Origin: an uncultured Prevotella sp.
Lineage (GTDB): Bacteria; Bacteroidota; Bacteroidia; Bacteroidales; Bacteroidaceae
Reading direction: 5' to 3'
NCBI GenBank assembly: GCA_964602785.1
Contig: CAZRSL010000006.1
Location: 240-64,239, forward strand
Length of the DNA stretch: 64,000 nucleotides
The notes beneath the pieces were generated by a model. The model worked only from the letters and a program-made list of their open reading frames with translations. It ran no database searches and had not been told where the DNA came from. The position numbers were made by a program, and so were the translations under genes. Shown piece by piece: positions 1-41,630 of this stretch. How positions within the stretch are numbered: position 1 is the first letter of the stretch; each line of letters begins with the position of its first letter.

Positions 1-754
1 CCCAAATGGCATTGCCGCCATTGTCAAAGATTATCATCTTTGATCCAGCTACGGTAAATGGAAGGGCTTCCACCACACCGTCGGCGTAGGAAATGCTGAC
101 AACGCCTTTAAGACCATTGTCGCTTGCTTCCACAGAGTATGTGAGGTTTCCCTCATCAAATTGCTTCACAATCGACTCAGCATATTTGGCGACCCAATTA
201 CCAGCAGAGCCTGTGGGGAAACACAATGTCAACTGGTCGCCATTGTCGTTTAACTTCGACCATATAGTTCCAGTGAGCGCTCTTGCGCTTTTCGAATCCT
301 GCGTTTTCTCAAAGTTTAGTGTATTTCCGTCGCTTGTTTTCAAAACCATCTTTCTGTCATTGCAAGAGACGATGGTGTAAGTCATGGTTTTCTTCTTGCC
401 ATCGGTGAAACCGTTGAATGTTGACGAGCCTCTTTCGGTATATACCGACACATCATTATATATGGCAAATATCTGATTGCCGCTTAGAGTGTAGGTGCCT
501 TTGGCCGTTACACCCTCGTCTTGGTTGATCAAGTCGGTGAAGTAGATATTCCCCTGACCTTTAAAGTCGATAATCAACTCGCACGACTCTTCATCGTCGA
601 TGTCAACATACCAACTTCCTGAAATGACGGTGGAGTAGTCCACATTCTCAGTGGCTTCTTCATCATCGTCTTCACTGCACGATGTAAATGCCAGACCTGC
701 AACTGCCATCATCATAATGGCGAGCTTGTTCCAAAATAAAATCTTTGTTTTCAT
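1..754 (-). CDS. Lipoprotein of unknown function (3' end runs off the window)
   Basis: Not in the ORF track. Manual translation from ATG 754 gives MKTKILFWNKLAIMMMAVAGLAFTSC-SEDDDEE..., a lipobox followed by an acidic stretch typical of Bacteroidota surface lipoproteins; open to the window edge. Confidence 0.8.
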   Translation of the reverse strand, partial: MKTKILFWNKLAIMMMAVAGLAFTSCSEDDDEEATENVDYSTVISGSWYVDIDDEESCELIIDFKGQGNIYFTDLINQDEGVTAKGTYTLSGNQIFAIYNDVSVYTERGSSTFNGFTDGKKKTMTYTIVSCNDRKMVLKTSDGNTLNFEKTQDSKSARALTGTIWSKLNDNGDQLTLCFPTGSAGNWVAKYAESIVKQFDEGNLTYSVEASDNGLKGVVSISYADGVVEALPFTVAGSKMIIFDNGGNAIW

Positions 755-868
755 TGTTTCTAAAGCACTAAGTCCCGTGTCGTGCGCAACCATATAATTA
801 ATTGATGAATTATTTGTTACTTGACTTTCTCAAATATATAAACATCCACTTTGCGAAAGTTGAGTTTG

Positions 869-1711
869 TTAAATGCAACCTCCCAACGATATTTCAAAGT
901 AGCCTTTGCTTTCCCCATTCTTGTCGTTGAAAGGAATCAAATACGCACCTCCTAGTTCCACCCCCCACAAGTGAAGGCGAATGCCTAAACGACCATTAGT
1001 CTCCAGCCTGCCATCTGGCTTAACCGATTTTTTGACTTTTTGGGATCCAACACCTTGTTTTTGCACACACTTAACGACATAGTTGAAATCTATACCCGCA
1101 TACGGAACAAGGGCGAACTTGCTGTCACCCAGCCTAAAGCCAGCTTCTACAGGCAGATGAATGTAGTGATTTGTTATGTCTAAATTATTGGAACTCGACC
1201 GAGGATATGATGTGCTGAGGTTGTAAGTGCTATATCCTATCTTGGCTCCAACATAAAAATTATGGTTGAAGTTATAATTTGCACCTGCAGCCATAGTGAA
1301 AGCAAAACTCCTGCATTTTCCGCCTTCCACCTTAGGCCTTGGTGTGAAGCCGTATGAAAGATGGCTTGTTAAAGACCATTTTTGAAATTCATCATCGTCT
1401 GCACCTGAGGCTTTATAACTTGTTTCTGTTTGCTCCACCAATGCGCTCTCGCTTTTCACAGAACTTGCTTGCTCTTGTCTTTTAGAGCTGACATCGGGCA
1501 AGACAAGCTCCATTCCGACATACACAAATTGGGCGGCGTCGGGATTGAGCTTGACAATCTCGTCCTCGGAAACGGAATAGAGCTTGGCAATCGACGCAAG
1601 AGTTTCGCCGCGCTCCACCACGTGCTTAGTTGTGCCGCTTTGGGCAAAACATGGCACAACACTCATTGCAGCCAAAACGGCTAAGGCAATCGCTTTCTTT
1701 AATCTTTTCAT
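869..1711 (-). CDS. LysM domain plus outer-membrane beta-barrel protein
   Basis: Signal peptide; LysM (HVVERGETLASIAKLYSVSEDEIVKLNP); C-terminal amphipathic beta-strand pattern. Confidence 0.8.
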   Translation of the reverse strand: MKRLKKAIALAVLAAMSVVPCFAQSGTTKHVVERGETLASIAKLYSVSEDEIVKLNPDAAQFVYVGMELVLPDVSSKRQEQASSVKSESALVEQTETSYKASGADDDEFQKWSLTSHLSYGFTPRPKVEGGKCRSFAFTMAAGANYNFNHNFYVGAKIGYSTYNLSTSYPRSSSNNLDITNHYIHLPVEAGFRLGDSKFALVPYAGIDFNYVVKCVQKQGVGSQKVKKSVKPDGRLETNGRLGIRLHLWGVELGGAYLIPFNDKNGESKGYFEISLGGCI

Positions 1712-1724
1712 TTCGTATGATTAT

Positions 1725-2816
1725 TTAATGTTGACAATATGTACATTTTCCAGTTCCATTGCATAGGGTGCATTTCAGTGAATTCGCCCCCAGCCCAAAC
1801 GAGCCATTCATCAGGCCGTCTCCTCCGCACATTGCGCACTTTCCTGTATTGCCACAGTACCATTTCCCGTTTGATGCCTTTAAAGAAGGACAGTCTTTGC
1901 TTGTTGCACTACTGCCATGACTATAACTTCCTGCATGACTAACAGAAGTTTCACTTGTATTTGTTGTGGCATTTTGTGTTTCTTGATTCGCTTGTGCTTT
2001 CATCTGCATAAATTGCTCACGAGTCAAAGAAGGGTTAAATTGTCTTGCCTGTTGGTATTCCGCTTCATATTGGGCATTAACTTGTTGTATGGCATACCGA
2101 GGGTCTAACAAATAGTCTAAATTGTTATTACTCCGTGAAGTATAGGCACTTATGCTTGTTGAACTTTTAGCTTGCTGATTCGCAACAATTGCAGTCGTTG
2201 TAGCAGCAGCCGCAGCAACAAAAAGGCTTCCCCACATCTCGCCCCTGCGCTCCAATTGCTCTTCTCTGTATTTGCGTGCGCTTGCCAGCAGCGAAGTGCA
2301 ATGGGAGCGTATGTTGCCCGTGCATCTCGAATCGGCCAAGGCGCATTCGAAATCCTTGATGGAGCTCTTCCATTTGCTTTGGTTGTAGTAGGCCAAAGCT
2401 CTGCCGTAGTAGGCGTCGACGCAAGAGTACTCGCTCGACTTGTATGCCTTTATAATCTTGCTGTAAGCCTTGGCCGCCTTGCTGTATTCCTCTTTGCTAA
2501 GCAGTTCGTCGGCCTCCTTGCAAGCCTCGCTGATGGCTGTGCGAACGCTGACAGCCTCGGCCACAAGCGACGGCGACACGTTTGCTAAAGCCACGTCGGC
2601 CTGGTCGCAGGGAACTTCCAGTTCCATGCCGGCATATACAAATTCGGAAGCGTCAGGATTCAACTCCACAAGCCGCTCTGTGGTTGTTCCGTAAAGTTTG
2701 GCCACAGACGCCAACGTCTCGCCCCTGTCAACAATGTGCTTGATGATGTTGTCTTGCGAATGGACATGGCAACTGATTATCATCAGCAAAATGATTAAAC
2801 CTGTTGTGCGTCTCAT
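1725..2816 (-). CDS. LysM-TPR protein with hydrophobic helix and C-terminal CxxCxGxG zinc finger
   Basis: LysM (HIVDRGETLASVAKLYGTT), TPR-like AYYGRALAYYNQSKWKSSIKDF, Ala-rich hydrophobic helix, CAMCGGDG...CTLCNGTGKC. ATG at 2816 preferred over TTG 2825. Confidence 0.8.
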   Translation of the reverse strand: MRRTTGLIILLMIISCHVHSQDNIIKHIVDRGETLASVAKLYGTTTERLVELNPDASEFVYAGMELEVPCDQADVALANVSPSLVAEAVSVRTAISEACKEADELLSKEEYSKAAKAYSKIIKAYKSSEYSCVDAYYGRALAYYNQSKWKSSIKDFECALADSRCTGNIRSHCTSLLASARKYREEQLERRGEMWGSLFVAAAAATTTAIVANQQAKSSTSISAYTSRSNNNLDYLLDPRYAIQQVNAQYEAEYQQARQFNPSLTREQFMQMKAQANQETQNATTNTSETSVSHAGSYSHGSSATSKDCPSLKASNGKWYCGNTGKCAMCGGDGLMNGSFGLGANSLKCTLCNGTGKCTYCQH

Positions 2817-2821
2817 CTCCG

Positions 2822-3715
2822 TCAATTGGTTTGGATTATAAGATAATTAGAGATTCGCCAGAACTCCGATGGCGTTTTCACCTTGAGGGTGAAGTTGCCG
2901 CTCCCTGTGGTTGTCAGCTCATACGACGACGATGGCATGTTGGTGAGAATGCGCGGACGTTTTGCAGTAAAGCTGATTTCAGTCCATGTTCTGATGTCGA
3001 CCTTGGCGAATTTCGTCCTGTCCAAGCTGGCTCCAGTAGCCAGTCGGTTCTTTTTGGTGAGTATTCCTTTTCGCTTCAAGTCGTCTTTGGTTCCTATCAT
3101 CACGTAGCCATTGTTGAGCATCGCGTCTTGCCGGGCCAAAGCTTCGCTCTGTTTCTTAGTGCGTTTGTTCAGCTCGCTGATGGTGGCGTTCTGCGTTTCT
3201 ATGGTCGACCGCTGCGTGTCGAAGCGTGATTGGAGCCGCGACAGGTCGACGTTCTTTTTCTCCAGTTCCCTCCTCAGCTGTGCTATTTGCTTGTCCTTGG
3301 CTTCTATCTGCTCCCGCAAATGAGCCAGGAGCTTAAGCGATTTTTCTTCGTCTGCCGACATGCCATCCTGGCGCTTCTCCCCAAGTTGTCGCTCCAGTTG
3401 GTTGATTCTTTCTTTCTGCCTTTTGAGCACACTTTCAAATCGCGTCAGGTTGTCTTTCACTTCATCTCTGCTGATGGGCGTCTCGGAGTTCCGCTTGATG
3501 AAAACTATGTCCTCTTGATAAGCTATCGAGTCGTATGTTGAGTTGATTATGTCAATCATCCGGTCGTAGCTGTCAAGCTTAATTGCGTTGATGTTGCTTA
3601 TGTTGCGGAGGGAATCGCGCTCCTCAACAGTTCTCGAGAACTCCTTGTCCGATTTTCCACAACCAATAACAAGTAGCAGAACTGCTACGGCGGGAACGTA
3701 TATGCTTCTTTTCAT
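2822..3715 (-). CDS. Coiled-coil lipoprotein, resembling the Bacteroidales Cbp1-like adhesin family
   Basis: Lipobox VIGC, long heptad coiled coil, C-terminal GYVMIGTKDDLKRKGIL...FWRISNYLII domain. Family assignment from memory. Confidence 0.6.
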   Translation of the reverse strand: MKRSIYVPAVAVLLLVIGCGKSDKEFSRTVEERDSLRNISNINAIKLDSYDRMIDIINSTYDSIAYQEDIVFIKRNSETPISRDEVKDNLTRFESVLKRQKERINQLERQLGEKRQDGMSADEEKSLKLLAHLREQIEAKDKQIAQLRRELEKKNVDLSRLQSRFDTQRSTIETQNATISELNKRTKKQSEALARQDAMLNNGYVMIGTKDDLKRKGILTKKNRLATGASLDRTKFAKVDIRTWTEISFTAKRPRILTNMPSSSYELTTTGSGNFTLKVKTPSEFWRISNYLIIQTN

Positions 3716-3721
3716 ACGGCG

Positions 3722-4453
3722 TTATTTCTTTGGTTGGTAAATCAGAAGTTGTGTTCCTGCGCCAAGAGGTGATGTCGGCTTCAAGCGAGATGGCAAATCG
3801 TTCCACTCGACTATCTCCTCTGGCGTCACATTATATGTCTTAGCTATCTTGTTAAGGGTTTCCCCCTTTTCCACAGCGTGGAACAAGACTACATATTCTG
3901 GCTGCCCTTGTTCCTCGACTTTGGTGTCTGGTTCGGTGTCGACCACAGGCTCTGCTTTCTTCTCTGCGGGGGTAATCACATCTATCAATCCGCTTTTGTA
4001 TCTTATCATGAAAACATCAGCCTTGTCGAACTCCCCGTATGGGGCAATGCCTCTCTTCAATCCCAGATGCCCTTTCTTGGCGGCTTTGATAGAATAAGCG
4101 ATATGGTTTTCCTTTATTATTATGTCCTCGACGGCAATCTCGGCTCCCTGTATTAAATAGATGACGTTTTTGTGTTTCACGTCGGCCCGTTTTGGCTCAC
4201 CTGTTATGCGCTTGCCATCTGGGGTGATGTAAATGTTGCCTTGCTTCTCGATATAGACCATGTAGACATCTGTCGACGGCACTTCTTGCATGATGCCAGC
4301 CTTTCCCACATTCTTGAAAACAAGCTTCTCGTTGTTTATCTGATACAGCTTGATGTCTCTTTCAGTCCCATTCCTGAAGATGATATGGTCTTGCGCCATA
4401 CATGTGCTAATGGAAATGAATGCGCAGACGATTATAGAAATAATGCTTCTCAT
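3722..4453 (-). CDS. Secreted protein with C-terminal LysM domain
   Basis: Signal peptide ending AQD; C-terminal FHAVEKGETLNKIAKTYNVTPEEIVEWNDL. Confidence 0.8.
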   Translation of the reverse strand: MRSIISIIVCAFISISTCMAQDHIIFRNGTERDIKLYQINNEKLVFKNVGKAGIMQEVPSTDVYMVYIEKQGNIYITPDGKRITGEPKRADVKHKNVIYLIQGAEIAVEDIIIKENHIAYSIKAAKKGHLGLKRGIAPYGEFDKADVFMIRYKSGLIDVITPAEKKAEPVVDTEPDTKVEEQGQPEYVVLFHAVEKGETLNKIAKTYNVTPEEIVEWNDLPSRLKPTSPLGAGTQLLIYQPKK

Positions 4454-4490
4454 TTTGCTTTTTTTATTGAATAATGTTTACAGCAATCCG

Positions 4491-7064
4491 TTACATCCAT
4501 TCCAAAACGGGGAAGCCGTCGCTTCCTGCTTTCCATTTGCCCCAACTTGACTGTGCCCTTGAGTTCAGCAGATTCAGGAAGTCCGCACTCTTCAGCTCGT
4601 TTTCAGTTTTGCTGCTGTTGTTGGAACTGGTGCCTTTGTAAGTAGAGCCTATAGCGGCCAAACCACTTTGGAAGAGATAATAATTGTATGACACGCTGAT
4701 ACCGTTATTGTATCCCAATACTGCCCCAACATTTTTGGAGGCTTTAATGTTGGTGCTAAGGTTTAAGCAGTTTTGAACTTTATATGAAGTTGATTTCCCC
4801 ATAACCCCACCAATTCCTCCTGCCGTGGCTTCATCTGCTTTAACATCTCCTGTATTTAAGCAATTATAGACATAAGTGGAAAGCGAATTTGCCAAAATCC
4901 CACCAACAATACTTGATCCTGATAGGCTGCCACTATTGCAACATGATATTATGGTTGTTCCTGTTGAACATATGCCAATAATTCCACCAACATCGTCGCC
5001 ACCGACCACGTTTCCTTTGTTCAAGCTTTTGGAAATTGTGACTTTATTACTATTACTGTTGTTATTTCCAACAATGCCGCCCAATGCGTTTCCTCCTGCT
5101 ATTGTTGCTTCATTTGTACAAAAGGTTATGCTTGTTTCTTTACTGCCGTTATAGTATTCCAGTAAACTTGAGGGAATTGTTGTGCCCATGTAATTTGGCC
5201 TGGTATTGCCTGCGATACCTCCAACATAAGCACTACCGTTAAAATAAGAGTCTTTTATAGTAAGATTCTTAACACTACCATACAGTTTTCCGAAAAATCC
5301 GATATTTTCTCCTTTGGGCCGATTGCAGTATAAGCCACTTATGGAGTGTCCATTTCCATCAAATGTTCCACAGAAGAAATATGACGGATTGTAGCGTCCT
5401 ATTGGTATCCATGGCTCAAAGTTGCTGCCGTCACCATTCAACTCTCCATTTCTGTTCAGCACATTTCTATTGATGGTGATGTCGGCCACCAATTTCACAT
5501 ATTGGTTTTTGAAAGTGTTGCCAGTTCTGACGGCGTCGGAGAAATAGCGCAATTCGGCAGCGGAAGAAATGGTGTAGGGATTGGAGCTTGTACCAGTTCC
5601 ACCAGAGAACCCGTCTGCCACGTACCCCCTTCGGGAATCTTTAGCGTCGGCTTCATCTTGGTTTCTGTCGCTATATTCAGCATTGTCCGGGTCTTCGGAG
5701 TCTGAATCGCCAGAACCTTCTCCAGTCAGACTTGCATCCTCAATGGTTGACTTGAACTTGCTCCATGGCGAAACCTTGGCATAGGCAGACTTGCAGCCTT
5801 TAGGCACATACAAAGTCCACCCGCTCTCGCGTGACGCCCATGTTGAACCCCCGACTATAACATCTCCTGCTGTGGATGGTGGTTCTGAAAGGTTGACATA
5901 CATATTCCCCGAGCTGGCGGTGACGAATGTTTTGGCTCCCATCTTCTTTAGTCCTGTGCCTATTACGATTTTTGTGAAACTGCCCTCAAAGGCTGTGGCT
6001 CCGATTGATTGCAAGCTGTTAGGCAATGTCAGCTCTTTGCTTGTGCCACAGACATTGCCAAGAAATGCACCGTTGCCTATTGTCTCAACTCCCTCAGAGA
6101 AGGTCAAAGAGCTAATCTTTGCATCTTCAAAAGCAAAATCACCGATGCTTCTAAGTTCAGTGCCAAAGTCTACTTTCATCATACTAAGGGCACAACCATA
6201 AAAGGCATAATCACCAATCTCTTCAATCTTTTCTAAGGATGACGGCGAAAACTGTTTTAGATTCTTGCAGCCAGCAAAAGCCTCTTTGCCTATGTAAGCA
6301 ATATCTTCGCCAAGCCAGATGTTTGTTACCAACGACCCTTTAAACGCTCCATCCCCGATTCTTGTCAGCGACTTGTCGGGAGTCTCAATTTCTGTGATGT
6401 TGAGAACAGCAAAAGCGTTGTTGCCTATCGATGTAACGCCTTCGTTGATGACGACCCTATTAGGCAAACGGTTGTTCTTTCCCCATGGGGTGGCTGAATA
6501 TGATGAATAGTCTGCCATTTCTCCGTCGCCATCAATCCATAAAGCGTTCATCAAATCACTGTACCACATGCAGTCGCCAGTTGTTCCTTGTATGGTGTTT
6601 ATCCATTGGTAATCTGAAGCGGTTATTTCTTCTCTGGAGAATCGTATGTTGTTGGCTTGCAACACGTCATTGGAGAGGTCAAAGCCGTTTATTGAAAGGA
6701 TATTGTCTGTTATATAATCCAATTCCACATCGTTGCCTTTCGTGTAGTATTTAAAGTGGGCAACGGCTCTGCTCTTTGAGGTTCCTTGGTTAGAGTAAGA
6801 GTCTTTTTGTGAATGATAGATTATGCCATTTGTCAGCGAATGGAAGTATACTGTAACAACCTCGTCATGGGTGCCAACGTAGTCGTCGCCAATGCTATAA
6901 TCCCAATTTTTCAGTTCCCATTTGCTTCCAACAAGTTTTTTGTTGCTCTCCGTAGTTAAACCATTTTCTCCCTCGCTTTCCTTGTCTGTGCTGCAAGATG
7001 ATAGTCCCACGCAGATTACCGCCATGAAAGTGAATAATCGCGATAAATAATTCCTTGTTTTCAT
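4491..7064 (-). CDS. Surface lipoprotein with BspA-type leucine-rich repeats and GLUG/beta-helix domain
   Basis: Start MKTRNY (7064) with lipobox LSSC; repeats of xxIGxxAF; SGGTGTSSNPYTISSA and VGGIxG repeats. Confidence 0.85.
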   Translation of the reverse strand: MKTRNYLSRLFTFMAVICVGLSSCSTDKESEGENGLTTESNKKLVGSKWELKNWDYSIGDDYVGTHDEVVTVYFHSLTNGIIYHSQKDSYSNQGTSKSRAVAHFKYYTKGNDVELDYITDNILSINGFDLSNDVLQANNIRFSREEITASDYQWINTIQGTTGDCMWYSDLMNALWIDGDGEMADYSSYSATPWGKNNRLPNRVVINEGVTSIGNNAFAVLNITEIETPDKSLTRIGDGAFKGSLVTNIWLGEDIAYIGKEAFAGCKNLKQFSPSSLEKIEEIGDYAFYGCALSMMKVDFGTELRSIGDFAFEDAKISSLTFSEGVETIGNGAFLGNVCGTSKELTLPNSLQSIGATAFEGSFTKIVIGTGLKKMGAKTFVTASSGNMYVNLSEPPSTAGDVIVGGSTWASRESGWTLYVPKGCKSAYAKVSPWSKFKSTIEDASLTGEGSGDSDSEDPDNAEYSDRNQDEADAKDSRRGYVADGFSGGTGTSSNPYTISSAAELRYFSDAVRTGNTFKNQYVKLVADITINRNVLNRNGELNGDGSNFEPWIPIGRYNPSYFFCGTFDGNGHSISGLYCNRPKGENIGFFGKLYGSVKNLTIKDSYFNGSAYVGGIAGNTRPNYMGTTIPSSLLEYYNGSKETSITFCTNEATIAGGNALGGIVGNNNSNSNKVTISKSLNKGNVVGGDDVGGIIGICSTGTTIISCCNSGSLSGSSIVGGILANSLSTYVYNCLNTGDVKADEATAGGIGGVMGKSTSYKVQNCLNLSTNIKASKNVGAVLGYNNGISVSYNYYLFQSGLAAIGSTYKGTSSNNSSKTENELKSADFLNLLNSRAQSSWGKWKAGSDGFPVLEWM

Positions 7065-7121
7065 AATTATAATGCACTTTGTCCGTGTTGTGCGCAACCA
7101 TTATAACATGTTTTATTTTCT

Positions 7122-7943
7122 TTATTTGAATTGTTGTTCTCGTAGCTCAGAAGCGTCGGTTTTGTCTCCAACAATTAGTCTTAGGTGCTTCAAGTCGTTG
7201 TCTGCAAGTGGATAACTGCCGCATCGCTCATGATGGCTGAGCACTCGCTTGGCGCGCCGCTGGTTGAGCATGGCATGTTTTTCCGCCTTCATGTAATACT
7301 TGATGGCAAGCTGCTCGTTCCTGATTCCATCTTGGTCAGCGTCATAGTATTTGTCACCAAGCTTGGCATATATTATTGGCAGGTCATCAGCCATTTGGAG
7401 CAATATGGTATCTTCGACATTATCATTCAACAACATTTTATAGATTTTCGCAAATGTGGAGCCTTCGTCCTCTGCTTGCTTAATAAGTTCAACGCATCTA
7501 ATAGTATCGCCTCTACTGGCGGCCATTTCCGCTGCAATCACCTTGGCTTCAGAAACGTTTTTCTTCATAAGCACATTGACAATGCTGTCGCTGTTAAGGC
7601 CAGGAGGGGCTGAAAACAACATGTAAAGAGCCTTGTAATCATCGCTGTCGGGCAAGCCATTTATGTAGTTGCCAACACTGCTAATGGCTCCACGCTGCGC
7701 TGCCATTTCTGCCATGGAAATCATGCACAAAAAGTCTTTCTTCACCCCTTCGCCTTTTCTGTAGCATTCGGCAAGTTTCAAGTAGGCGTTTGCGTCGCCC
7801 CATCGTGCCTGTTCCACCAATAGCTCTTTGAAGTCTGTCAAATCTTTACAACATCTGAGGCTTACGGATGTAGCCCTGCTAATTGCTTGTTGTGCAAGAC
7901 ATGCTGCAATCATCAATGCTGCCAGAAGTGTTGGTCTTTTCAT
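7122..7943 (-). CDS. Sel1-like repeat protein, secreted
   Basis: Signal peptide; GDANAYLKLAECYRKGEGVKKD Sel1 motif. Confidence 0.75.
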   Translation of the reverse strand: MKRPTLLAALMIAACLAQQAISRATSVSLRCCKDLTDFKELLVEQARWGDANAYLKLAECYRKGEGVKKDFLCMISMAEMAAQRGAISSVGNYINGLPDSDDYKALYMLFSAPPGLNSDSIVNVLMKKNVSEAKVIAAEMAASRGDTIRCVELIKQAEDEGSTFAKIYKMLLNDNVEDTILLQMADDLPIIYAKLGDKYYDADQDGIRNEQLAIKYYMKAEKHAMLNQRRAKRVLSHHERCGSYPLADNDLKHLRLIVGDKTDASELREQQFK

Positions 7944-7984
7944 TTTCTTTTATTTAACTCATGTCGTAAGCGGCCTATTAATTA

Positions 7985-8449
7985 TTACCTGTATTCCACT
8001 TCGTATTGGCCGCCCCTTCCTCCACACATGGGGCATCTTCCTTCTCGACATACGGGACAATCCTCCTGGTTTCCGTTGTAAGGATTAAATTGGACACCTT
8101 GCCCATAACAGTAATTACAATTTCCACTTCCAAAGCAATTAACGCAGTTATGCCACACTTGCATAGGAACTGCCTCTCTCGAACTTGATTTGACCTCACT
8201 TTCCGATTGTTGGTTTTGCGCATCTCGTTGTTCCGTATCATGAGGAACAGGTGCCTCGAATGCTGATCTTACAAGTTTTGCCGAATCTACTGGATCAGGT
8301 GCTTCGAACACTGCTTCTTCTACTCCTGTCGTATCCATTATTATAGTGTCCCTTTCTGGGACGTTATCCGCATTGCGGCATGTTTTTGTTAAAAGGAACA
8401 AATTTGAAGCTACTAATAGTGCAAACAATAAATAAAATAACTTTTTCAT
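7985..8449 (-). CDS. Membrane-anchored or secreted protein with DnaJ-type CxxCxGxG zinc finger
   Basis: N-terminal hydrophobic segment; CVNCFGSG-CNYCYGQG...CPVC...CPMCGGRG. Confidence 0.7.
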   Translation of the reverse strand: MKKLFYLLFALLVASNLFLLTKTCRNADNVPERDTIIMDTTGVEEAVFEAPDPVDSAKLVRSAFEAPVPHDTEQRDAQNQQSESEVKSSSREAVPMQVWHNCVNCFGSGNCNYCYGQGVQFNPYNGNQEDCPVCREGRCPMCGGRGGQYEVEYR

Positions 8450-8516
8450 TTTTATTTTTAAAGGTTGTTATTTGAATTATAATAATTATAATATCGAGAA
8501 ATATGCTCCAACCACT

Positions 8517-9251
8517 CTATTTCTTTACGTTTTCCATGAAAGCACTTGGTATATATGCTGTGCATGCCGTCAGTAGTCCTTCAACGATTACAGCTACACG
8601 CTGTTGCCCTTTATAGCGTTTTACAATCCCAGTGACGCCTTTGAAATCGCCGTGGATGACTTTGACCAACTGGCCAGCTTTGAAATTGTGGATTTCATTT
8701 GTCGACAGGATTACATCTTTTGCTTCGGCATTGCATATTATGCGGAAGCTTTCCATCTGGTGGTCGGGCACAGTCAGTGGCTCTTTGATCTTAGTATGAC
8801 CAATGGTAACTGTGCGGTAGTAAAAACGAAGGAAAGGGAGGTTGATATTGTCGTAGACGTGTAGTTTGATTTCGTCCTCAGTGCCGTAGGCGAAGAAAAT
8901 GTTTGGGATGCGAGATTTCTCTATGGTCTTTTTCTTTCCGCCGACCATCTTCACGGTGGTCAGCGTGGGGTAGAATGCCGTGACATTCTTACTGCTCAAA
9001 TACTCGTATGCTTTCTTTTCTCGACCGTATGTCGTGCGCAAAGCATACCAGCGGCGGAATTTCTCAAGTCTTCTTTTGCCAGCAAAGGCCTCTGAACCCG
9101 GCGGGGCGTTTTCGGTGGACACCCCTGTTTGTGAGTTCTCGGCCAAAGGTGGCTTTCGAACTTCGGGGAGGGCATCGGGAATCGACCCAATGCGGGGAGA
9201 GGACTTGCCGCCTCCGTTGATGTCATCCATATTCTTGTTCGCAATATCCAT
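8517..9251 (-). CDS. upxY: UpxY-family (NusG paralog) transcription antiterminator
   Basis: NGN domain (WYALRTTYGREKKA...IPNIFF) and KOW domain (GQLVKVIHGDFKGVTG...GQQRVAV); ~65-aa N-terminal extension, start codon uncertain. Confidence 0.85.
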   Translation of the reverse strand: MDIANKNMDDINGGGKSSPRIGSIPDALPEVRKPPLAENSQTGVSTENAPPGSEAFAGKRRLEKFRRWYALRTTYGREKKAYEYLSSKNVTAFYPTLTTVKMVGGKKKTIEKSRIPNIFFAYGTEDEIKLHVYDNINLPFLRFYYRTVTIGHTKIKEPLTVPDHQMESFRIICNAEAKDVILSTNEIHNFKAGQLVKVIHGDFKGVTGIVKRYKGQQRVAVIVEGLLTACTAYIPSAFMENVKK

Positions 9252-9740
9252 ATCGATGACAAAACTGTTCTAAACAGAACCCGTTTTCGACAAAGAAAAG
9301 CGTGGTACCGTCCTGTTGTCCATTCTACCAACAGAGGCTCTTGCATTGCCCATCAAAGTTGAACAGACAACGTTAGAGCCCACGCCGATATGAATATAGC
9401 TTAACCGTAAAGAGACCCGTACACACACATCATACCCGCAAAAAGGTATAATTCCTGTTTACAAGGTCTCCACGGGAATGATATAATCACACCCCGGACA
9501 TCTACCGTTGCTTTGTTCAAGACTTTGATTTCGGAGGTTGCAAGATTCCTGTTGGTCTCAAACACAGCGGCGACAAACGCCTTTTTTATGTCTGGACTAT
9601 TTGCTTCCCACCCATGGCCCGCTTGGCATTGCTGGTTGTCGCGTGGCGACACCATCCTGCTCAGCCCGGCGTGGGCTGCCTCGCTGCCATGGTGGGAGAT
9701 CACGTCTCACCGTAATGTTGCAAGGCTGTATAGTCCACTT
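9252..9740 (-). ncRNA. Long structured 5' leader RNA, putative attenuator (copy 1, upstream of upxY)
   Basis: Homologous to 41217-41630 with covarying stems and a compensatory loop-loop pairing (see findings). Confidence 0.75.
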
Positions 9741-9741
9741 G

Positions 9742-9749
9742 CAAAGGTA
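9742..9749 (-). promoter_or_regulatory. Bacteroidota sigma-A -7 element TACCTTTG for the upxY operon
   Basis: Matches the TAnnTTTG consensus; lies just upstream of the structured leader. Confidence 0.6.
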
Positions 9750-9895
9750 CAAAGTTTTTTCGGTTATCTGCAAGCTTTTCCACATTTTTGCCGTTTTAAA
9801 AGTTGTTAACACCAATTACTCAAGCCATCAGCTACTGTAGACGACCGTGTTTTGCGGCATCCCCCAGCGGCATCAATATATGGAAATAACACAGA

Positions 9896-9938
9896 AAAAG
9901 GCCCGCGAGCAGGGATGTCGTTCCCTCTCGCGGGCCTT
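9896..9938 (-). terminator. Rho-independent terminator after the large GLUG protein gene
   Basis: AAGGCCCGCGAG...CTCGCGGGCCTT stem followed by a T-run on the minus strand. Confidence 0.75.
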
Positions 9939-9976
9939 GATAGTTAGCCGAGCTGGAGGCTCAGCTGTAGAGTTTG

Positions 9977-12900
9977 CTACCTGACGGTCTTCTCAGTGGT
10001 CTGAGTGCCGTCGGTGTAAGTCTTGCGGATGATAAGCACCTGACCGCGGCGCACCTGGCTTGGACTCACCTCCATACCGTCGACAGTGTAGTAGCGCCGG
10101 CTCTTCAGCTCCTTGCCGGTGGCGATGGAGCGGATGCCAGTGGCGTTGTCGGCGTTCAGGGTGAAGGTCTTGCTCCAGTTGCCGAGCTTGGCCGTAACGG
10201 TGAACAGACCGGTGAACGGCGTGTTGAACGCGGCCACATTGCCATTGAAGGTGATGCTTGCCGAGTCGGCAGTCCATGTCAGTCCGTCGGTCTGGCCCAC
10301 GTAGAAGGCCTTGGTGATGTGCTGCCACGAGTCGCCGTCAGCTGCCACAGGTATCACACCCGAGAAGCGGGCTGCGGCCGAGTCAGCGAAGATGGTGAGC
10401 ACAGGCAGACTGTAGTCGTCGTTGTGCTTGAACGCGCTTCCGAGGTCGAGCTTGGCCATTGCTGCAGCGTCGAGGCCAGTGGCCTGAGCGTCGTGGGCGT
10501 TGGCTGCGTTAAGGTCGCTGAGGAAGTAAGTGTTCTCCATCACGTTGTTCTCGTTCCAGTAGCGGCTGTAGGTGGAGCCGATGATGTTGCCACAGGTGTC
10601 GGCCTTCTGCTCGTCGCTGAGGCCGTCGGTGATGACCACCACCTTGCCAGCGTTGTAGCTGTTATGGAACTCGGTGGCGTTGCCAGTGGTGAGAGCCGTT
10701 ACACGATTTGGCTGGCCCACCAGTCCGCCCACATAGCTTGCGCCCGTAACGGTGCCGGTGTTGTAGCAGTTGTAGAAGTGGGCCGACGAGACGCCAGCCA
10801 GACCGCCGATGGCGTAGCCCGACGTGGTGCCGTTGGTGCCGCCCGCTGTGAGCGAGGTGGAGACGTTGCCGATGTTGAAGCAGTTCTCCACATTGCCCTT
10901 GCTGGTGCCGTAGCCGATGATGCCGCCGGCGCGGTTGGTCGATGTGGCTATGTCGCCGGTGTTGTAGCAGTTGCGGATCACGTTGGTGGTGTCACCAGTG
11001 AAACTGGCCACGATGCCGCCCAGTCCGAAGCCGCCGTCGATGCGTCCGGCATTGTAGCAGTTCTCAATGAGCATGTTCTTGCTCATAGAGTAGCAGACGA
11101 TGCCACCGCCCTGGTTGCCGTTGGCTGTAACGTCGCCCAGATTGTAGCAGTTGCTCACGATTGTGGCCACGCTGGCAGTACCTGATGCGTTCTTGCCTAT
11201 CAGACCGGCGGTGTAGACGTTCTTCTCCGACATGATGGTGCCGCTGTTCCAGCTGTTGGTGATCTTGGAGCCAACGCTGTAGAAGCTCATCAGACCGGCT
11301 GTGGGCGCATTGCTGGTGGACGCTGTGGCCGCCGCGATCATGTCGCCAGTGTTGTAGCAGCTGTCCATCTCAACAACGGTGGTGAAGCTGTTGCCAGCAG
11401 TGATCAGTCCGGCCACGTTGCCCTTTGCGGTGATTGTGGCGGTGTTGTAGCTCTTCTTGATGGAGAGCGTGCCAGCTCCACTGACGTTGGCGATGAGGCC
11501 GGCTGCGAAGGTGGTGTTGTTGGTCTTGGCCACCGAGATCTCGCCAGTGTTGAACACATTATTATATGTTGCAGGAGCCGACACGCAAGCGAAACCAGCA
11601 ATGTAGTTGGCAGTGCTGGTCTGGCTCACCTTGCCCTCGTTGCCGCAGGTATTGAACTGTGCGCCGCTGTAGACCTGTGCGGCGAAGCCAGCCAAGTATG
11701 CCTTCGACGACGACACGTCGGCGCGGTTGTAGCAGCTGTCGAACTCGGCTGTGCCGTAGGCGTGGGCCACAAATCCAGCCGCGTAGGTCTGGGTTGTGGT
11801 AACGGCTATCTGGTTGACGCAGTTCTTCACCCGACCATACACGTCGCCGGCGAATCCAGCCGCATAGGTGTGGGTGGCTGTCATCTTGCCCTCTAAGGTG
11901 AGGTCGTGCACGTAGCCAAACTCGCCGATCACCGAGAATGCGCCGCCGCCCTCAGCAGTGGCTATCGACTTGTTGGTGATGCCGGAGATGGTCATGCCGT
12001 TGCCGTCGAAGTCGCCGTTCATCGGGGTGATGAAGTCGCGGCCTATCTGCTTGAACGTCTCGCCGCTGAAGTCGATGTTGTTCTCCACACGCAGATACTG
12101 GCCCTTGAAGCTCTCGGCGCAGTCGACCATATAGTCGGACACGGCGTTCCAGTCCTGCGGAGTCTTGATGAGGAACGGCGATGCCTGGGTGCCGTCGCCC
12201 TCAAGCGGGAACGGATAACGCTGCTTGATGATCATCACCTTGGTGTAGTTAGGTGCGGCTGCCACGAGGGTGTCGACCTGCAGGCTGCTGACCGTTGCCG
12301 GAACCACAACCTTGCTGCCGTCGATCTTGAACGATGTGCCCTGGGTGAGCTGCCAAGTGGTGGCGGCTGGGGCTGAGAGCGCGATGTCGCTCTTCACGTC
12401 GAATGCCGTCTCGCCAGTGCCAATCTGCGGGATCACGCTTGCGGCATTCTTCACGATGGAATCGTTGGCAAACTGCTTCAGCACGGGGTACTTGCCCTGT
12501 TCAAACTGCCAGAGGCTGTCGGCCAGTCCGGCCAGTTTCTCTCCGCTGATGAGGGCCGATGTCTCCACGCCCGTTGCGGCGTTGATTTCGGTTGCGCCAC
12601 CAGAGGCGTAGGGAGCAATCTGCTTGTCGAAGTAGATGTTGGCGTTCTTGGCGCCATCCGATTCGTTGCTGCCAGTGATGCCACCGATGAGACCCTGGTC
12701 GAGGGTGATCACCGTGCCATAGCTGACCGAGCTGATGATGTCGCTCAGGCCCACGTCGGCGTAGGTGTCGGCGGGCTTGCTGATGTTGCCGGCTATGCCA
12801 CCCACCATTGAGGTGTAGGCGTAGACTGTGCCAGCGTTGACGCTGTTGCTGATGGTGCCAGCGCTCAGCGTGCCCACGATGCCACCAGAATAGCGCATGC

Positions 12901-15900
12901 GGCTGGCGTTGCGGGCCACCGATGTCTGGTTGAAGTAGGAGAGCTGCTCCACGGTAACGGCACCAGTGTTCATCGAGTTCTCGATGCGGCCACTGGAAGT
13001 GCCGGCAATGCCGCCGACGTCCATGTAGCCAGTGGCCACGTTGCCTGTGTTGAGGCAGTTGCGCACTGTGCCTTCCTTCTCCACACGGCCCACGATGCCG
13101 CCTATCCAGCAGCTCAGGCCTTTCACGTCGGCGTGGTTGACGCAGTTCTCCACGAGACCGTAGTTGTCGCCAACAAACGGTCCTGCCGTGGCCCAGAACT
13201 CAAGCTTGGCGTCGGCCGCGATGGTCAGGTTCTTCACCACGCCATTCAGGTCGAGGCGGCTGAAGAGACCGTTCCATCCCTTCGACCCGTCGGAGCCAGT
13301 AGATGGGGTGCCTGTGCCGTCGGCAAAACCGGTGGTGGGCTCGGTGGTCCACTTCACGTAGCCTCCGAGATAGAGGTTGTGCAGGGTATGGCCCGCGCCG
13401 TCGAACACACCGGCGAAGCGCGAGTAGGCGTCGTCAGGATTGTTGGCGAAGCCGATGAACGCAGTGTCGAGCTCCATGTCGATGTCGTTCATCACCTGGA
13501 AGTAGGTCTGCGGGAAGTAGAGGTTCTTGTTGGTGGTCAGGTCAGACAGATAAATCATGTCGGCCTTGGTCTTGATCTGGTAGGGGTTGGCCTCGGTGCC
13601 GGCTCCGTCGAGCGTTACCGGGGCGGCCTTGATGGCGTAGGAGAGCGAGTCGCGGCCGTTGACAACATAGAGCGTGTCGGTGCCGTAGCCGCCGTTGAGC
13701 ACGAGGTCGGTGCCGCTGATGCTCATGTAGTTGCCCTCGCTGCCGGCCGTTCCGCCCTTCACGAGCTTGAACTTGGTGTTGCTCAGGGCGTTCACCTTGG
13801 CAGTCTTGGCCATGTTCTCAAGTGAGTTGCCCTCGGCGAAGATGAGCGCGCTCGAAGCGTAAGCCCCTGCCTCGGTGCTCTCGGCAAACTTCAGGCGCGG
13901 ATAGTAGCCGCTTTGGAATGTCCAGACCGAAGTGTCATAGCCGTCGAGCACGGTGCCCGATGTCAGTGTGGCTGTGGGAGTGCTGAAGCGCACCGAGTTG
14001 TTGTTGGTGATCTGGTTGTCGAAGTAGATGCCGCTGAGTGTCGGGTTGGCGCCGTCGGCTATTGAGCCGAGAGCCTCGCGCACACCGTTCTTCGAGTCAT
14101 ACTGGTAGGTCTCGGCATCGACAAAGCCTGCCGAGAAGGCGTTGACGACGGAGCTCTCTATCGAGTCGTTGCCCACCTTGTTCTTGGCCACAAGGCCGGT
14201 GATGCCACCGCAGTTGACAGCGCTAACCGCCAGCACGGTGCTGGTGGAGTAGGCGTTGCTCAGTTTGGAGGCTGCCAGCAGACCAACCACGCCGCCCGCC
14301 TGGGTCTTGCTGTCGTAGCCACGCAGGTAGGCACGCGAGAACGCCTGGTCGATGGTGGAGTTGTAGGCAGTGCCCACCACGCCGCCAATGCGCTGGTTGG
14401 ACGAACTGGTGTAGACGGTGCCGGTGAAGTAGCACTTCTCCGCGCTTGCGCTGTAGAGGTTGCCCACCACGCCGCCTACGGGGTTGTAGTCGCCGCCACC
14501 CTCAGTGATGCTGACACCAGTGGCGAAGCAGTTGCTGATGGAGCCGTCGACCTCGCCAGCCACACCGCCCACGTAGCCGTAGGAGCCGGTGATGGTGCTG
14601 TTGACAACGTCGGAGTTGCTGATGGTGGAGCCAGTGCCGATGATGCCGCCTGTGGCCATGCCGCTTGCGGTGACCTTGGCGTTGACGACGTGGATGTTGT
14701 CCATCGTTCCGCTTTCCCATCCAGCCAGCACGCCGGTGAAGCTGCCGGAGTTGTTGATGGTCGGGCTGTCAAACGTCAGATCCTTGATGGTTGTGAGCGA
14801 GTCGACGCGGCCAAAGAGGCCGGCATAACCCACAGTGGACGACACGTTGAGGTTCTTCAGCGTGTGGCCGCCACCGTCCAGGTTGCCCGAGAACAGATAC
14901 GTGTAGCCGTTGCCGATGGGCGTGAAGCGGTAGTTCTCCATGTCGATGTCGTTCATCACCTTGAACCACTTGCCCTTGTAGGCGCGGTGGATGACGTAGG
15001 CGCCGATGGTGTCGGTGGCTTCCCATGCCTTGGCGTTGTCGGAGAGGAGGATCAGGTCGTCGAGCTGCTTGATCTGATACGGGTCGGCCTCGGTGCCGCT
15101 GCCCTCAAAGCTCGACACTGAGAGTGCCGGATAGGTGAATGTGGCATCCTGGTCGTTGTACTCAAGATAGCCCGAAAGCCTGTAGCCGGCGTAGGCGCTT
15201 GAGGCCAAGAGCGACCAGGCACCCCACGAGATGCGCTTGTTGCCAGTGGCCTTGGCGCAGGTGATGGTGCTCGTGAAGTTGGACGACATGGCCGTGGTGT
15301 CGGGGTTTACCACGCCCACGGTCTGGAAGTTGCCGTAGCTTGAGGCGTACATGGCCACCTGCGACGCTATCGTGGCGGTGGAGTCGCGCTGCAGCTCTAT
15401 CTCCACGGTGTGGCCTTGTCCGGCGAAGTTCTTCACCTGCACCACATTCGACGAAATCTGGTTGATTGCCACGTTGTAGCCGTAGGTTTGGGCTGTGGTG
15501 CTGTCACTTGGAATCGCCGTGTAGATGAGGCGGCCGTTGGCCACGTCGAGCTTGGTGTCCGACCAGGCCTGATAGACGGCGTCCTTGCTCGAGCCGTCGG
15601 CCACGAAGAAGCCCCAGTAGTCGTCAATCTGGAGCGAGCCATCGGCGTTGATGGTGCCGCTGACAGCCTTGTCGCGGTCGATCACAGCCTTGCCACCAGT
15701 GATTGTGAAGTAGCAGACATCGACGTTCCACTTGTTGGTGGTGTCGACGGCCACAATCTGGTTGGGGATGTAGAACTTGCCCGCGGCTGCGTCGACGGCG
15801 GCTTTAACCACGTAGCCGGAGCCGCCGAAACCCGTCAGGGTTACGGTGTCGGCATCCTGGGCTGCGACGACGACCGAGTGGCCGCCCTCGAAGCTGCCTG

Positions 15901-16225: not shown

Positions 16226-16358
16226 TTTGGTGTTGTTGATTGGTTGAGGACAATGTGTGCTATAGGTTGTTCCTTGGGCGCAAGCGGGCTTCGCTGTCCT
16301 CATATAGACGATGCCCGATGCGTTTGGGGAGGTTGAAATCAAGGGTTGTATATATGAC

Positions 16359-16431
16359 GTAGGGGCGTGATTTATCATGCCCGAAACTCTGGTCGTTTGC
16401 CTATCGCGGGCATGATAAATCATGCCCCTGC
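16359..16431. repeat. GTAG-type REP doublet (REPIN-like)
   Basis: GTAGGGGCGTGATTTATCATGCCC...GGGCATGATAAATCATGCCCCTGC; inverted near-copy at 59119-59191. Confidence 0.75.
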
Positions 16432-16476
16432 GGTTTGGCTTGTGCTTGCTGCCTGAGTTTTGCATAAATCATCAGT

Positions 16477-41216: not shown

Positions 41217-41630
41217 TATACAATTGGTTTTTCGTTATCAATTGAAAGATTATCAACGATATTATACGAAAAAGGCGTAGGAGTCCGTATCGTTACTCGT
41301 CCTACAGCAGGAGGCTCTAGCATTGCCCATCGTGGTTGAACGAGCAACGCAGAAGCCCACGCCCGTATGTAAGTCCGCCTTTTAACCTTGACATGATTAA
41401 AAAAGTGGATATATACATACCCATGAGCATCTATCGTTGCTTTATACTTGACCACGATTGAAACTGCTAGATTTCCTGCTGTCAAGAACAAAGCGTCGGA
41501 TAAACGCCTTATCATATATGTGTGTCCCATTACAAGTATACTCCCAAAAGAGCAACCTTTCCCAACCTCTTGTGGACTTCCATTATCGCTAACGGCAAGT
41601 CTAAAGGTTTCGTGCATGGTTCACGGTTGC
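41217..41630 (-). ncRNA. Long structured 5' leader RNA, putative attenuator (copy 2, upstream of cotH)
   Basis: Homologous to the upxY leader; preceded by a TAGATTTG -7 element at 41630-41637 (minus strand). Confidence 0.75.

Follow-up and report, generated by a model that had tools for sequence, protein, structure and literature searches.

This study concerns the gene of an UpxY-family NusG paralog near the left end of a 64,000-nucleotide (nt) stretch of DNA from an uncultured Prevotella sp., called the window below (positions 240-64239 of contig C6 in the draft genome G000, which comprises 149 contigs, is 80% complete and has a GC content of 54.6%). The gene is the first open reading frame (ORF) behind a leader of about 490 nt, and eight tightly spaced, co-oriented genes for exported proteins lie 3' of it. 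The leader folds into a rod whose base shares its nucleotides with a terminator-like hairpin, and the protein, which has an N-terminal extension, belongs to a separate clade of the UpxY family that heads diverse non-polysaccharide operons across the families of Bacteroidales. On balance, we lean toward the interpretation that the unit is a portable head, consisting of promoter, attenuator and antiterminator, joined to AT-rich cargo. The UpxY-led non-polysaccharide operon described in the initial annotation of this DNA, which had been made without database searches, is real and more general than that annotation held.

Structured leader RNA upstream of the UpxY-type gene

When the 725-nt spacer in front of the UpxY-type gene was used in a BLAST search, the upstream regions of most relatives matched with 70-77% identity over about 540 nt, so that by BLAST identity the leader is about as conserved as the gene itself. 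The initial annotation had overlooked this conserved structured RNA and its terminator. Its parts are as follows.

9742..9749 (-): -7 box of the promoter, TACCTTTG, aligning with TAnnTTTG-type boxes at related loci
9599..9735 (-): 5' part of the long-type leader, with the conserved blocks AGCCCACGCCGGGCTGAG and GCGGGCC-ATGGGTGGGA (68 distinct leaders)
9294..9598 (-): structured leader core of about 300 nt, a rod of nested helices (RNAalifold, 44 leaders)
9564-9560/9325-9321 (-): helix P1
9556-9549/9334-9327 (-): helix P2
9545-9539/9345-9339 (-): helix P3
9529-9496/9381-9352 (-): helices P4-P7
9493-9487/9393-9387 (-): helix P8
9471-9411 and 9453-9430 (-): inner hairpins
9294..9328 (-): terminator-like hairpin, with stem 9328-9322/9308-9302 and U-run 9301-9294
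9267..9280 (-): small hairpin GTTCTGTTTAGAAC, lying 15 nt before the start codon

TAnnTTTG is the consensus of the Bacteroidetes-type -7 promoter element. The TACCTTTG box is accompanied by an imperfect -33 element, and the full two-box promoter pattern is unmatched.

The prediction with RNAalifold on 44 leaders gave 77 pairs, 32 of them with compensatory changes. Among 41 distinct rows, 97.5% of the paired cells were able to pair, compared with 89.8% after shuffling (0/500), and double-change cells numbered 232 compared with 66.9 in the shuffled alignments; when the partners were moved by 1-3 columns as a control, 40-46% were paired. These data demonstrate that the leader folds into a covariation-supported rod. 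The terminator stem is paired at 90.4% in 41 distinct sequences, and its 5' arm (alignment columns 303-309) consists of bases that belong to the 3' strands of P1 and P2 (columns 297-310). Because both structures use the same bases, the rod and the terminator would be mutually exclusive, and on this structural argument the leader is predicted to be a terminator/antiterminator-type RNA.

Nucleotides 9667-9677 are complementary to 9377-9387 and form an 11-nt perfect inverted repeat, a pairing that is beyond a covariation test because its 3' arm is invariant. An invertible promoter flanked by this repeat was considered and ruled out, because the arms do not enclose the promoter and every aligned locus has the same collinear arrangement. 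In the small hairpin GTTCTGTTTAGAAC, three pairs jointly switch to GUCAA...UUGAC in 8-9 of 49 sequences.

No Rfam 15 family matched window positions 8400-10100 at E<=1, and the leader hidden Markov model found no match at 20 classical UpxY loci with nhmmer. No description of the extended UpxY subfamily or of the leader was found in the literature on UpxY, Bacteroidales NusG paralogs and leader RNAs. Among the entries listed in the available part of a human-microbiome structured-RNA catalogue (PMC8040213), only nine candidates lie near UpxY domains, all of 37-77 bp; fragments of the leader may be among the candidates of that catalogue. Judging from these comparisons, the leader appears to be an undescribed RNA coupled to a variant of the UpxY system.

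In five relatives the leader is broken by an insert of about 75-80 nt (AGTAGCGCAAACCGAA...CTACTTTATG) at two different positions, namely alignment columns ~670-755 in loci L044, L060, L063 and L065 and columns ~270-350 in L045. It looks like a small mobile insert.

The UpxY-type protein and its N-terminal extension

8517..9251 (-): UpxY-family NusG paralog of 244 amino acids (aa), with the extension in residues 1-66 (9251-9054), the NGN domain from residue 67-68 and a KOW beta-barrel
9193-9186/9179-9172 (-): hairpin in the extension-coding region, with compensatory changes
9171-9161 (-): CCTCCCCGAAG block, with no variation at five positions (T, C, C, C and the first A) and conservation of at least 90% at the others
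9125-9115 (-): GGGGTGTCCAC block, eleven consecutive nt invariant in 68/68 sequences

The assignment to the UpxY family rests on a score of 142.6 bits against NF033644 (cut-off 100), covering profile positions 1-163 of 164. The Pfam NusG NGN domain scored 39.8 bits, and the scores against the RfaH, LoaP and NusG models were far below their cut-offs. In a search of the whole genome with NF033644, the protein (143.5 bits) was the sole UpxY above the cut-off. AlphaFold2 with 83 sequences gave a confident NGN domain and a beta-barrel KOW domain, the predicted local distance difference test (pLDDT) being below 50 in residues 1-59, whereas blocks of ten residues from position 71 on mostly reach 88-96.

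The extension, noted in the initial annotation as an unusual feature of about 65 aa, is real, and it is kept in 75 distinct relatives. All relatives in the genus, at 29-56% identity, retain it with the motif GG..PP..GLTSN.LPEV...S.TGVS. All 75 distinct sequences have an uninterrupted frame starting at the conserved ATG (GATATG), whereas each of the other two frames is broken by stops in 74 of them, and the lengths of all indels observed between the ATG and the anchor are divisible by three. The extension is therefore translated. A GTG (Val44) as the true start, which would delete the extension, was ruled out by the open frame and the in-frame indels.

Codon-position entropy is 0.59/0.66/0.79 in extension residues 10-50 versus 0.50/0.35/1.29 in NGN, and by the same measure NGN and KOW are under coding selection. 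The extension evolves under constraint at the nucleotide level, unlike a protein, and it is predicted to be disordered in the protein model. We interpret it as a coding sequence overlaid on nucleic-acid signals, although the protein segment may have a role as well; the nucleotide elements in 9115..9193 are candidate loading or pause signals.

A separate UpxY clade with diverse cargo

One genome per species was scanned for relatives, which yielded 158 confirmed sequences. The best 80 of these were kept; they share 50-61% identity over the full length and occur in records named Prevotella/Segatella, Bacteroides, Phocaeicola, Paraprevotella, Leyella, Muribaculaceae, Alistipes and Odoribacter. A few relatives in metagenome-assembled genomes with labels outside Bacteroidota were taken to be binning errors.

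In a quick maximum-likelihood tree calculated from NGN and KOW alone, without the extension, 71 rows, the window protein among them, form one clade (Shimodaira-Hasegawa approximate likelihood-ratio test 99, stem branch length 1.82), and eight classical UpxY proteins and four more distant paralogs from the genus fall outside it. Within the tree, rows from Prevotellaceae, Bacteroidaceae, Muribaculaceae, Rikenellaceae and Odoribacteraceae interleave. The clade is mobile and horizontally spread.

Of the best 80 loci, 78 were parsed (all but L104 and L114), and 70 have co-oriented ORFs downstream. The first six downstream ORFs of each locus were clustered and scanned with Pfam, giving the following cargo tally over the 78 loci, several of which are near-duplicates, so that the counts are not independent.

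Polysaccharide genes: 2 loci (2 of the 70 with downstream ORFs)
Type VI secretion system (T6SS; ClpV/TssC/Hcp/VgrG): 5 loci
SrfB/SrfC (with subtilase): 6 loci
FHA/Ser-Thr kinase/PP2C sets: 8 loci
Ketosynthase/ketoreductase/acyl carrier protein (KS/KR/ACP) lipid genes: 5 loci
Dynamin/HSP70-like: 4 loci
Tubulin-like: 3 loci
TerD/VWA: 2 loci
Other Pfam families: 23 loci
Cargo without a Pfam match: 12 loci
No co-oriented ORF downstream: 8 loci

Cargo in common with the window was found in 0 of 78 loci at E<=1e-5. As a control, 20 other UpxY-family loci were taken from three genomes that hold an extended paralog; 18 were parsed and 17 were above the cut-off. Of these 17 classical loci, 16 lead UpxZ and/or genes for polysaccharide synthesis or export (10 of the 17 have UpxZ) and the remaining one leads sialic-acid-type enzymes. 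The extended paralogs of the same three genomes lead a T6SS (L054), a tubulin-like set (L049) and no close gene (L091).

These results demonstrate that the extended UpxY proteins constitute a separate clade of the family heading diverse non-polysaccharide operons across families of Bacteroidales. The initial annotation had treated the gene as a capsule-type UpxY out of its usual context, and this part has to be abandoned. The phylogeny and neighbourhood analysis that it had proposed supported the non-polysaccharide cargo, but placed the gene in a distinct clade for which such cargo is normal.

Immediately upstream of the gene, a lysozyme-like ORF stands in 10 of the 68 loci with upstream ORFs, accompanied by a TraG-type coupling protein in 6 of those 10, and a tyrosine integrase was found in 5 of the 68.

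The commonest gene immediately downstream in the relatives (13 loci), which is absent from the window, encodes a protein of 207-231 aa with a weak C-terminal match to sigma-70 region 4. It is the first or second gene after the UpxY-type gene in L045, L068, L072, L073, L080, L087, L088, L089, L096, L102, L112, L113 and L116. This protein could be a dedicated partner of the extended subfamily.

At more distant extended paralogs in genus relatives (L035, L036, L037 and L040), no leader was detected and the cargo is different: an M48-peptidase/zinc-ribbon/TIR/RyR set in L035 and L037, AAA_21/AAA_15 ATPase sets in L036 and an LRR-PrimPol-RNase T fusion protein in L040. This cargo is defence-like.

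Three IMG/VR contigs filed as viral (L141, L142 and L143) carry the full leader near the contig end, and two of them also have the UpxY anchor. They may be an integrative and conjugative element (ICE) or prophage-adjacent host DNA and not phage.

Proposed mechanism and the leader family beyond the UpxY gene

In the mechanism that we favor, the head has the order promoter, structured leader of about 440 nt with an intrinsic terminator at its 3' end, and UpxY-type NusG paralog. Transcription would start at the TACCTTTG box, and the leader would then choose between two outcomes, the formed rod acting as antiterminator with read-through and the terminator forming where the rod does not. UpxY would be translated from the read-through transcripts and would board RNA polymerase at a site within its own transcription unit, for which the invariant GGGGTGTCCAC, the CCTCCCCGAAG block and the hairpin in the 5' coding region, or the invariant leader block CAACGGTAGATG, are candidates. 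It would then prevent pausing and termination across about 8.5 kb of AT-rich cargo, as UpxY does in Bacteroides and RfaH in E. coli. We infer attenuation, the loading site and antitermination because they are established for UpxY and RfaH in the available text of PMC11685472 and PMC7819879.

Several observations weigh against this proposal. The covariation of the leader terminator is weak, and 10 of 68 relatives have the UpxY gene without the distal leader. The L077 locus was recovered in two RNA-labelled runs from one sample; such runs are assembled contigs, here breaking at 9830-9859 within a repeated conserved block, and are silent on expression and on the starts and ends of transcripts. 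The contig of the window ends 239 nt past the last operon gene. Moreover, nhmmer found 14 leader-family loci in the genome, 10 of which cover both halves of the model, versus the one UpxY above the cut-off, and most of these loci are without UpxY. In a survey of 150 genomes of the same family, each at least 90% complete, the general leader motif was present in 46 versus 12 with the UpxY signature pattern, which misses CCCCGAAA variants and so undercounts. As the motif outnumbers the pattern, the leader works without the UpxY protein in many places.

The genome-wide searches behind these numbers used nhmmer, BLAST and IUPAC patterns, which are less sensitive than a covariance model. In the same survey, a 26-nt motif of the long-type leader was found in 29 of 150 genomes and 12 of 27 genera, with 1-4 copies each; it was not found in an even draw of 400 other genomes from 148 families of the order. 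Reversed patterns as a control gave 0 matches in the long-type scan and 1 in the general-motif scan. Eight long-type leaders were taken from places negative for the UpxY pattern, and behind two of these comes an UpxY gene, whereas five or six stand before genes of other exported proteins. In our genome, the fold also accommodates nine diverged copies, each of which retains a hairpin and U-run; across 14 sequences, compensatory changes were seen in 29 of 55 pairs. One copy lies in the window.

41266..41526 (-): second, short-type leader copy (nhmmer C6:41765-41505), fitting the family structure, with its own hairpin and U-run
41216-39792 (-): gene of a CotH-like lipoprotein of 474 aa (CotH 78.9 bits), directly 3' of this copy

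Twelve further leader-family loci (L144-L154) lie on contigs C5, C23, C94, C3, C90, C52, C59, C8, C61, C1, C134 and C18. The copies precede GT1/acyltransferase, kinase and FGE-sulfatase, GT2+YfhO and GtrA/GT2/PMT_2/Glf genes as well as BspA-type LRR and CotH-like genes, a UvrD-RNase T set and a HipA-like gene, a mixture of surface, glycan-modifying and defence-like functions, and several stand before the most AT-rich stretches of the genome.

This distribution could be explained by a regulon acting in trans, in which the single UpxY-type protein serves as an RfaH-like master factor that recognizes the shared leader and activates all operons bearing it. The 14 loci facing one UpxY, the accessory and partly AT-rich nature of the operons behind the leader, and the block CA.C.GTAGATG common to all copies of the genome are consistent with this explanation. 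The block contains CGGTAG, which we take to be the core of the E. coli ops element. However, a leader motif in more genomes than the UpxY pattern, even allowing for the undercount, weighs against a master factor, the nucleotides that vary least are found within the UpxY gene and are missing from the leader-only copies, and further paralogs are possible in a genome that is 80% complete. We regard such a regulon as somewhat unlikely.

Alternatively, control could reside in the leader alone, the RNA being a riboswitch-like attenuator or making polymerase resistant to terminators, with UpxY as a mere first cargo gene of little effect downstream. Long- and short-type leaders directly precede non-UpxY genes here and in other genomes, and the overlap of terminator and antiterminator is intrinsic to the RNA. 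This explanation is unlikely in our judgement, as the UpxY ORF is intact, with coding selection in NGN and KOW and a confident fold, and has been retained as the first gene of long operons at about 70 loci from different families; in addition, characterised UpxY proteins are required for their own operons according to the available text of PMC7819879.

The operon and its boundaries

The nine ORFs are all on the minus strand and span from 9251 to the left window edge, with intergenic gaps of -4 to 75 nt including one 4-nt overlap. The gene order and coordinates agree with those of the initial annotation. Profiles of Pfam and NCBIfam detected no sugar enzyme among the eight downstream proteins, and UpxZ (PF06603) had no match in these proteins nor anywhere in the 80%-complete genome, in agreement with the earlier description of a non-polysaccharide operon without upxZ. 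Its AT-richness, likewise described before, was evident as a GC content of 45.2% versus 54.6% in the genome, and the 5-kb window of the operon is within the lowest 3.4% of genome windows. GC3 is 0.34-0.62 in the operon genes versus 0.81 in the 2162-aa gene upstream, and the GC content falls from about 60% to about 49% at the upstream boundary.

9898..9938 (-): hairpin terminator of the upstream 2162-aa gene (perfect inverted repeat of 12 nt, then a T-run), which delimits the unit on its upstream side
9977-16465 (-): 2162-aa surface protein with many Gly-rich repeats, 60% GC, with this strong hairpin terminator at its end

Because the upstream gene closes with a strong terminator, the AT-rich unit begins abruptly. 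The cargo is compositionally foreign, and the AT-rich operon was probably acquired horizontally.

The initial annotation had allowed for separate internal promoters. No full two-box Bacteroidetes promoter pattern, the only pattern scanned in this respect, was found inside 1-9251; a sigma-70 promoter scan was uninformative (15 observed versus 14.4 expected), and terminator-like sites inside the string were not in excess (7 observed versus 9.7 expected). It is conceivable that the nine genes are merely co-oriented neighbours, each with its own promoter, since Bacteroidetes promoters are hard to predict. The short gaps with the 4-nt overlap, the uniformly foreign composition, and the lack of the promoter pattern and of a terminator excess inside the string make this very improbable.

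Left of the window the contig has only 239 nt. The inspection of this sequence, as had been proposed earlier, completed the last lipoprotein (271 aa) but reached no further, as the contig then ends in a repeat of about 55 nt (L001:1-55, 185-239 nt left of the window). This multi-copy repeat is present at both ends of C6 and is shared with the termini of at least five more contigs, namely C102 (both ends, inverted), C142, C106, C82 and C13. It interrupts the assembly just past the operon and may be the terminal repeat of a mobile element. With the contig ending there, and with 2 of 70 relatives leading polysaccharide genes, an ordinary capsule locus cut by assembly could be imagined, with its polysaccharide genes past the end of the contig and the envelope genes inserted into the locus. 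Against this stand the eight non-sugar genes that already follow UpxY, the lack of UpxZ, the usual non-polysaccharide cargo of the clade and the position of the gene apart from classical UpxY in the tree, and such a locus is scarcely credible.

The cargo genes

The eight genes downstream of the UpxY-type gene are listed below; export signals and lipoboxes were judged by eye from the N-termini of the translations.

7985..8449 (-): 154-aa protein; hydrophobic anchor at the N-terminus, four CxxC pairs of the CxxCxGxG type at the C-terminus (from sequence)
7122..7943 (-): 273-aa secreted Sel1/TPR-like protein; Sel1 21.8 bits, below the cut-off of 30.7; signal peptide by eye
4491..7097 (-): 868-aa lipoprotein; BspA-type LRR (LRR_5 121 bits), Gly-rich repeats in the C-terminal half, lipobox LSSC
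3722..4453 (-): 243-aa secreted protein with a C-terminal LysM, 34.1 bits
2822..3715 (-): 297-aa coiled-coil lipoprotein of the Cbp1 family; NF052320 197 bits versus a cut-off of 90, full model length; lipobox VIGC
1725..2825 (-): 366-aa LysM-TPR protein with a C-terminal Cys-rich domain; LysM 26.5 bits, TPR_16 29.6 bits
869..1711 (-): 280-aa LysM and outer-membrane beta-barrel protein; LysM 30.8 bits, OMP_b-brl_2 32.9 bits
793 to window edge (-): 271-aa lipoprotein with CSEDDDEE after the lipobox; complete ORF L001:217-1032, ending 22 nt left of the window

LRR_5, the three LysM domains, OMP_b-brl_2 and NF052320 are all above their own cut-offs. The earlier domain calls were upheld for the LRR, the three LysM domains, the outer-membrane barrel and the coiled-coil lipoprotein; Sel1 stayed below its cut-off, GLUG had no Pfam match at E<=0.01 in the 868-aa lipoprotein, and the Zn-finger is read from the sequence only, the 154-aa Cys-rich protein having no match in Pfam or NCBIfam. 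The 271-aa lipoprotein is TIGR03066-like at 44.5 bits, below the cut-off, and homologs of the 366-aa LysM-TPR protein were detected at E<=1e-17 in 3 of 24 genomes of the genus. A PADLOC scan of the nine proteins returned coiled-coil noise only.

Concerning their function, the eight products probably constitute a peptidoglycan-tethered outer-membrane and surface set (three LysM proteins, an outer-membrane barrel, and Cbp1-like and LRR lipoproteins), which probably serves adhesion or surface variation. From their domain content, the products might form a single envelope or adhesion complex. In the 297-aa lipoprotein, the likeness to Cbp1, the collagen-binding lipoprotein of B. fragilis, extends over the full model, but the homolog is embedded in a LysM/outer-membrane-barrel module and collagen binding is only putative here.

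The genus relative L030 holds a homologous module of Cbp1, LysM-barrel, LysM, LysM-TPR and lipoprotein genes without UpxY and without the leader. Therefore, these envelope genes are exchangeable cargo and not a dedicated partner of the antiterminator.

Significance

In the available literature, UpxY is treated as capsule-specific, with one exception, the resistance genes on ICEs. In abundant gut genera (records named Segatella, Prevotella, Bacteroides, Phocaeicola and others), the present subfamily, which is distinct and widely transferred, heads T6SS, SrfB/SrfC, kinase/FHA conflict-type, lipid and envelope cargo. Should the proposed function of the head be correct, the head would account for the expression of mobile AT-rich cargo in these hosts and would provide a compact, transferable expression module for Bacteroidales genetics. 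The leader RNA, which is large, multi-copy, strongly covarying and terminator-coupled and has no Rfam family, makes a concrete new candidate for an RNA that acts like a riboswitch or binds a factor.

A broader reading, possible but put forward tentatively, is that the leader represents a new structured regulatory RNA class and the boarding platform for the mobile extended UpxY, marking accessory operons for surface, glycan-modifying, secretion and defence-like functions genome-wide in Prevotellaceae and Bacteroidaceae. Bacteroidales ICEs and islands would then bear an RfaH/ops-like system of their own, in which RNA and protein antiterminators jointly express AT-rich foreign DNA.

Comparison with known systems

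The closest known system is the UpxY/UpxZ/opsX capsule system of Bacteroides (Chatzidaki-Livanis 2009 and 2010, as cited in PMC7819879; Saba et al. 2024, PMC11685472), in which, according to the available text of PMC11685472 and PMC7819879, UpxY works via pause sites in the leader and its NGN domain. The window gene resembles it in belonging to the same family, being the first gene of its operon, following a long leader and being encoded beside its presumed target. It differs in its separate clade, its N-terminal extension, the lack of UpxZ and its non-polysaccharide cargo. In addition, the covarying leader of about 300 nt with a terminator was missing from the 20 classical loci by nhmmer, and members of the extended subfamily often appear to be carried by conjugative or integrative elements.

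RfaH with its ops/JUMPstart element in enterobacteria (ops is described in the available part of PMC11685472) is likewise a NusG paralog for long, horizontally acquired operons. A conserved leader element stands at several operons per genome in both cases, and the invariant leader block described here contains CGGTAG. However, RfaH is encoded away from its targets, whereas the window UpxY is next to its presumed target. The KOW domain of RfaH refolds from an alpha-hairpin, whereas that of the window protein is a beta-barrel in the AlphaFold2 model, and ops is a 12-nt DNA signal, whereas the leader here is a 300-nt RNA fold.

Expression platforms of riboswitches and processive antitermination RNAs (EAR, put) are leader RNAs of the terminator/antiterminator kind. 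The leader is like them in being a structured 5' RNA that stands before long accessory operons and is predicted to compete with an intrinsic terminator, but it is much larger than most aptamers, is present in multiple copies per genome and has no Rfam family.

A precedent for upxY before non-polysaccharide genes on mobile elements is given by Yan et al. 2022 (PMC8748976), where upxY is the first gene of some antibiotic-resistance operons behind invertible promoters on Bacteroidales ICEs. In the available text of that paper, this upxY is read as the relic of a glycan locus, and neither a leader RNA nor a subfamily is described. One of our relatives, L098, has an insertion sequence and an rRNA-methylase gene downstream of the UpxY-type gene. 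The window differs from those operons in showing no sign of an invertible promoter, its 11-nt repeat being the arms of an RNA helix.

Finally, ActX and other plasmid-borne NusG paralogs, described in the available part of PMC7819879, share with the present subfamily the putative location of a NusG paralog on a conjugative element. ActX lies inside the pilus (transfer) operons, whereas the window-type gene heads a region of variable cargo.

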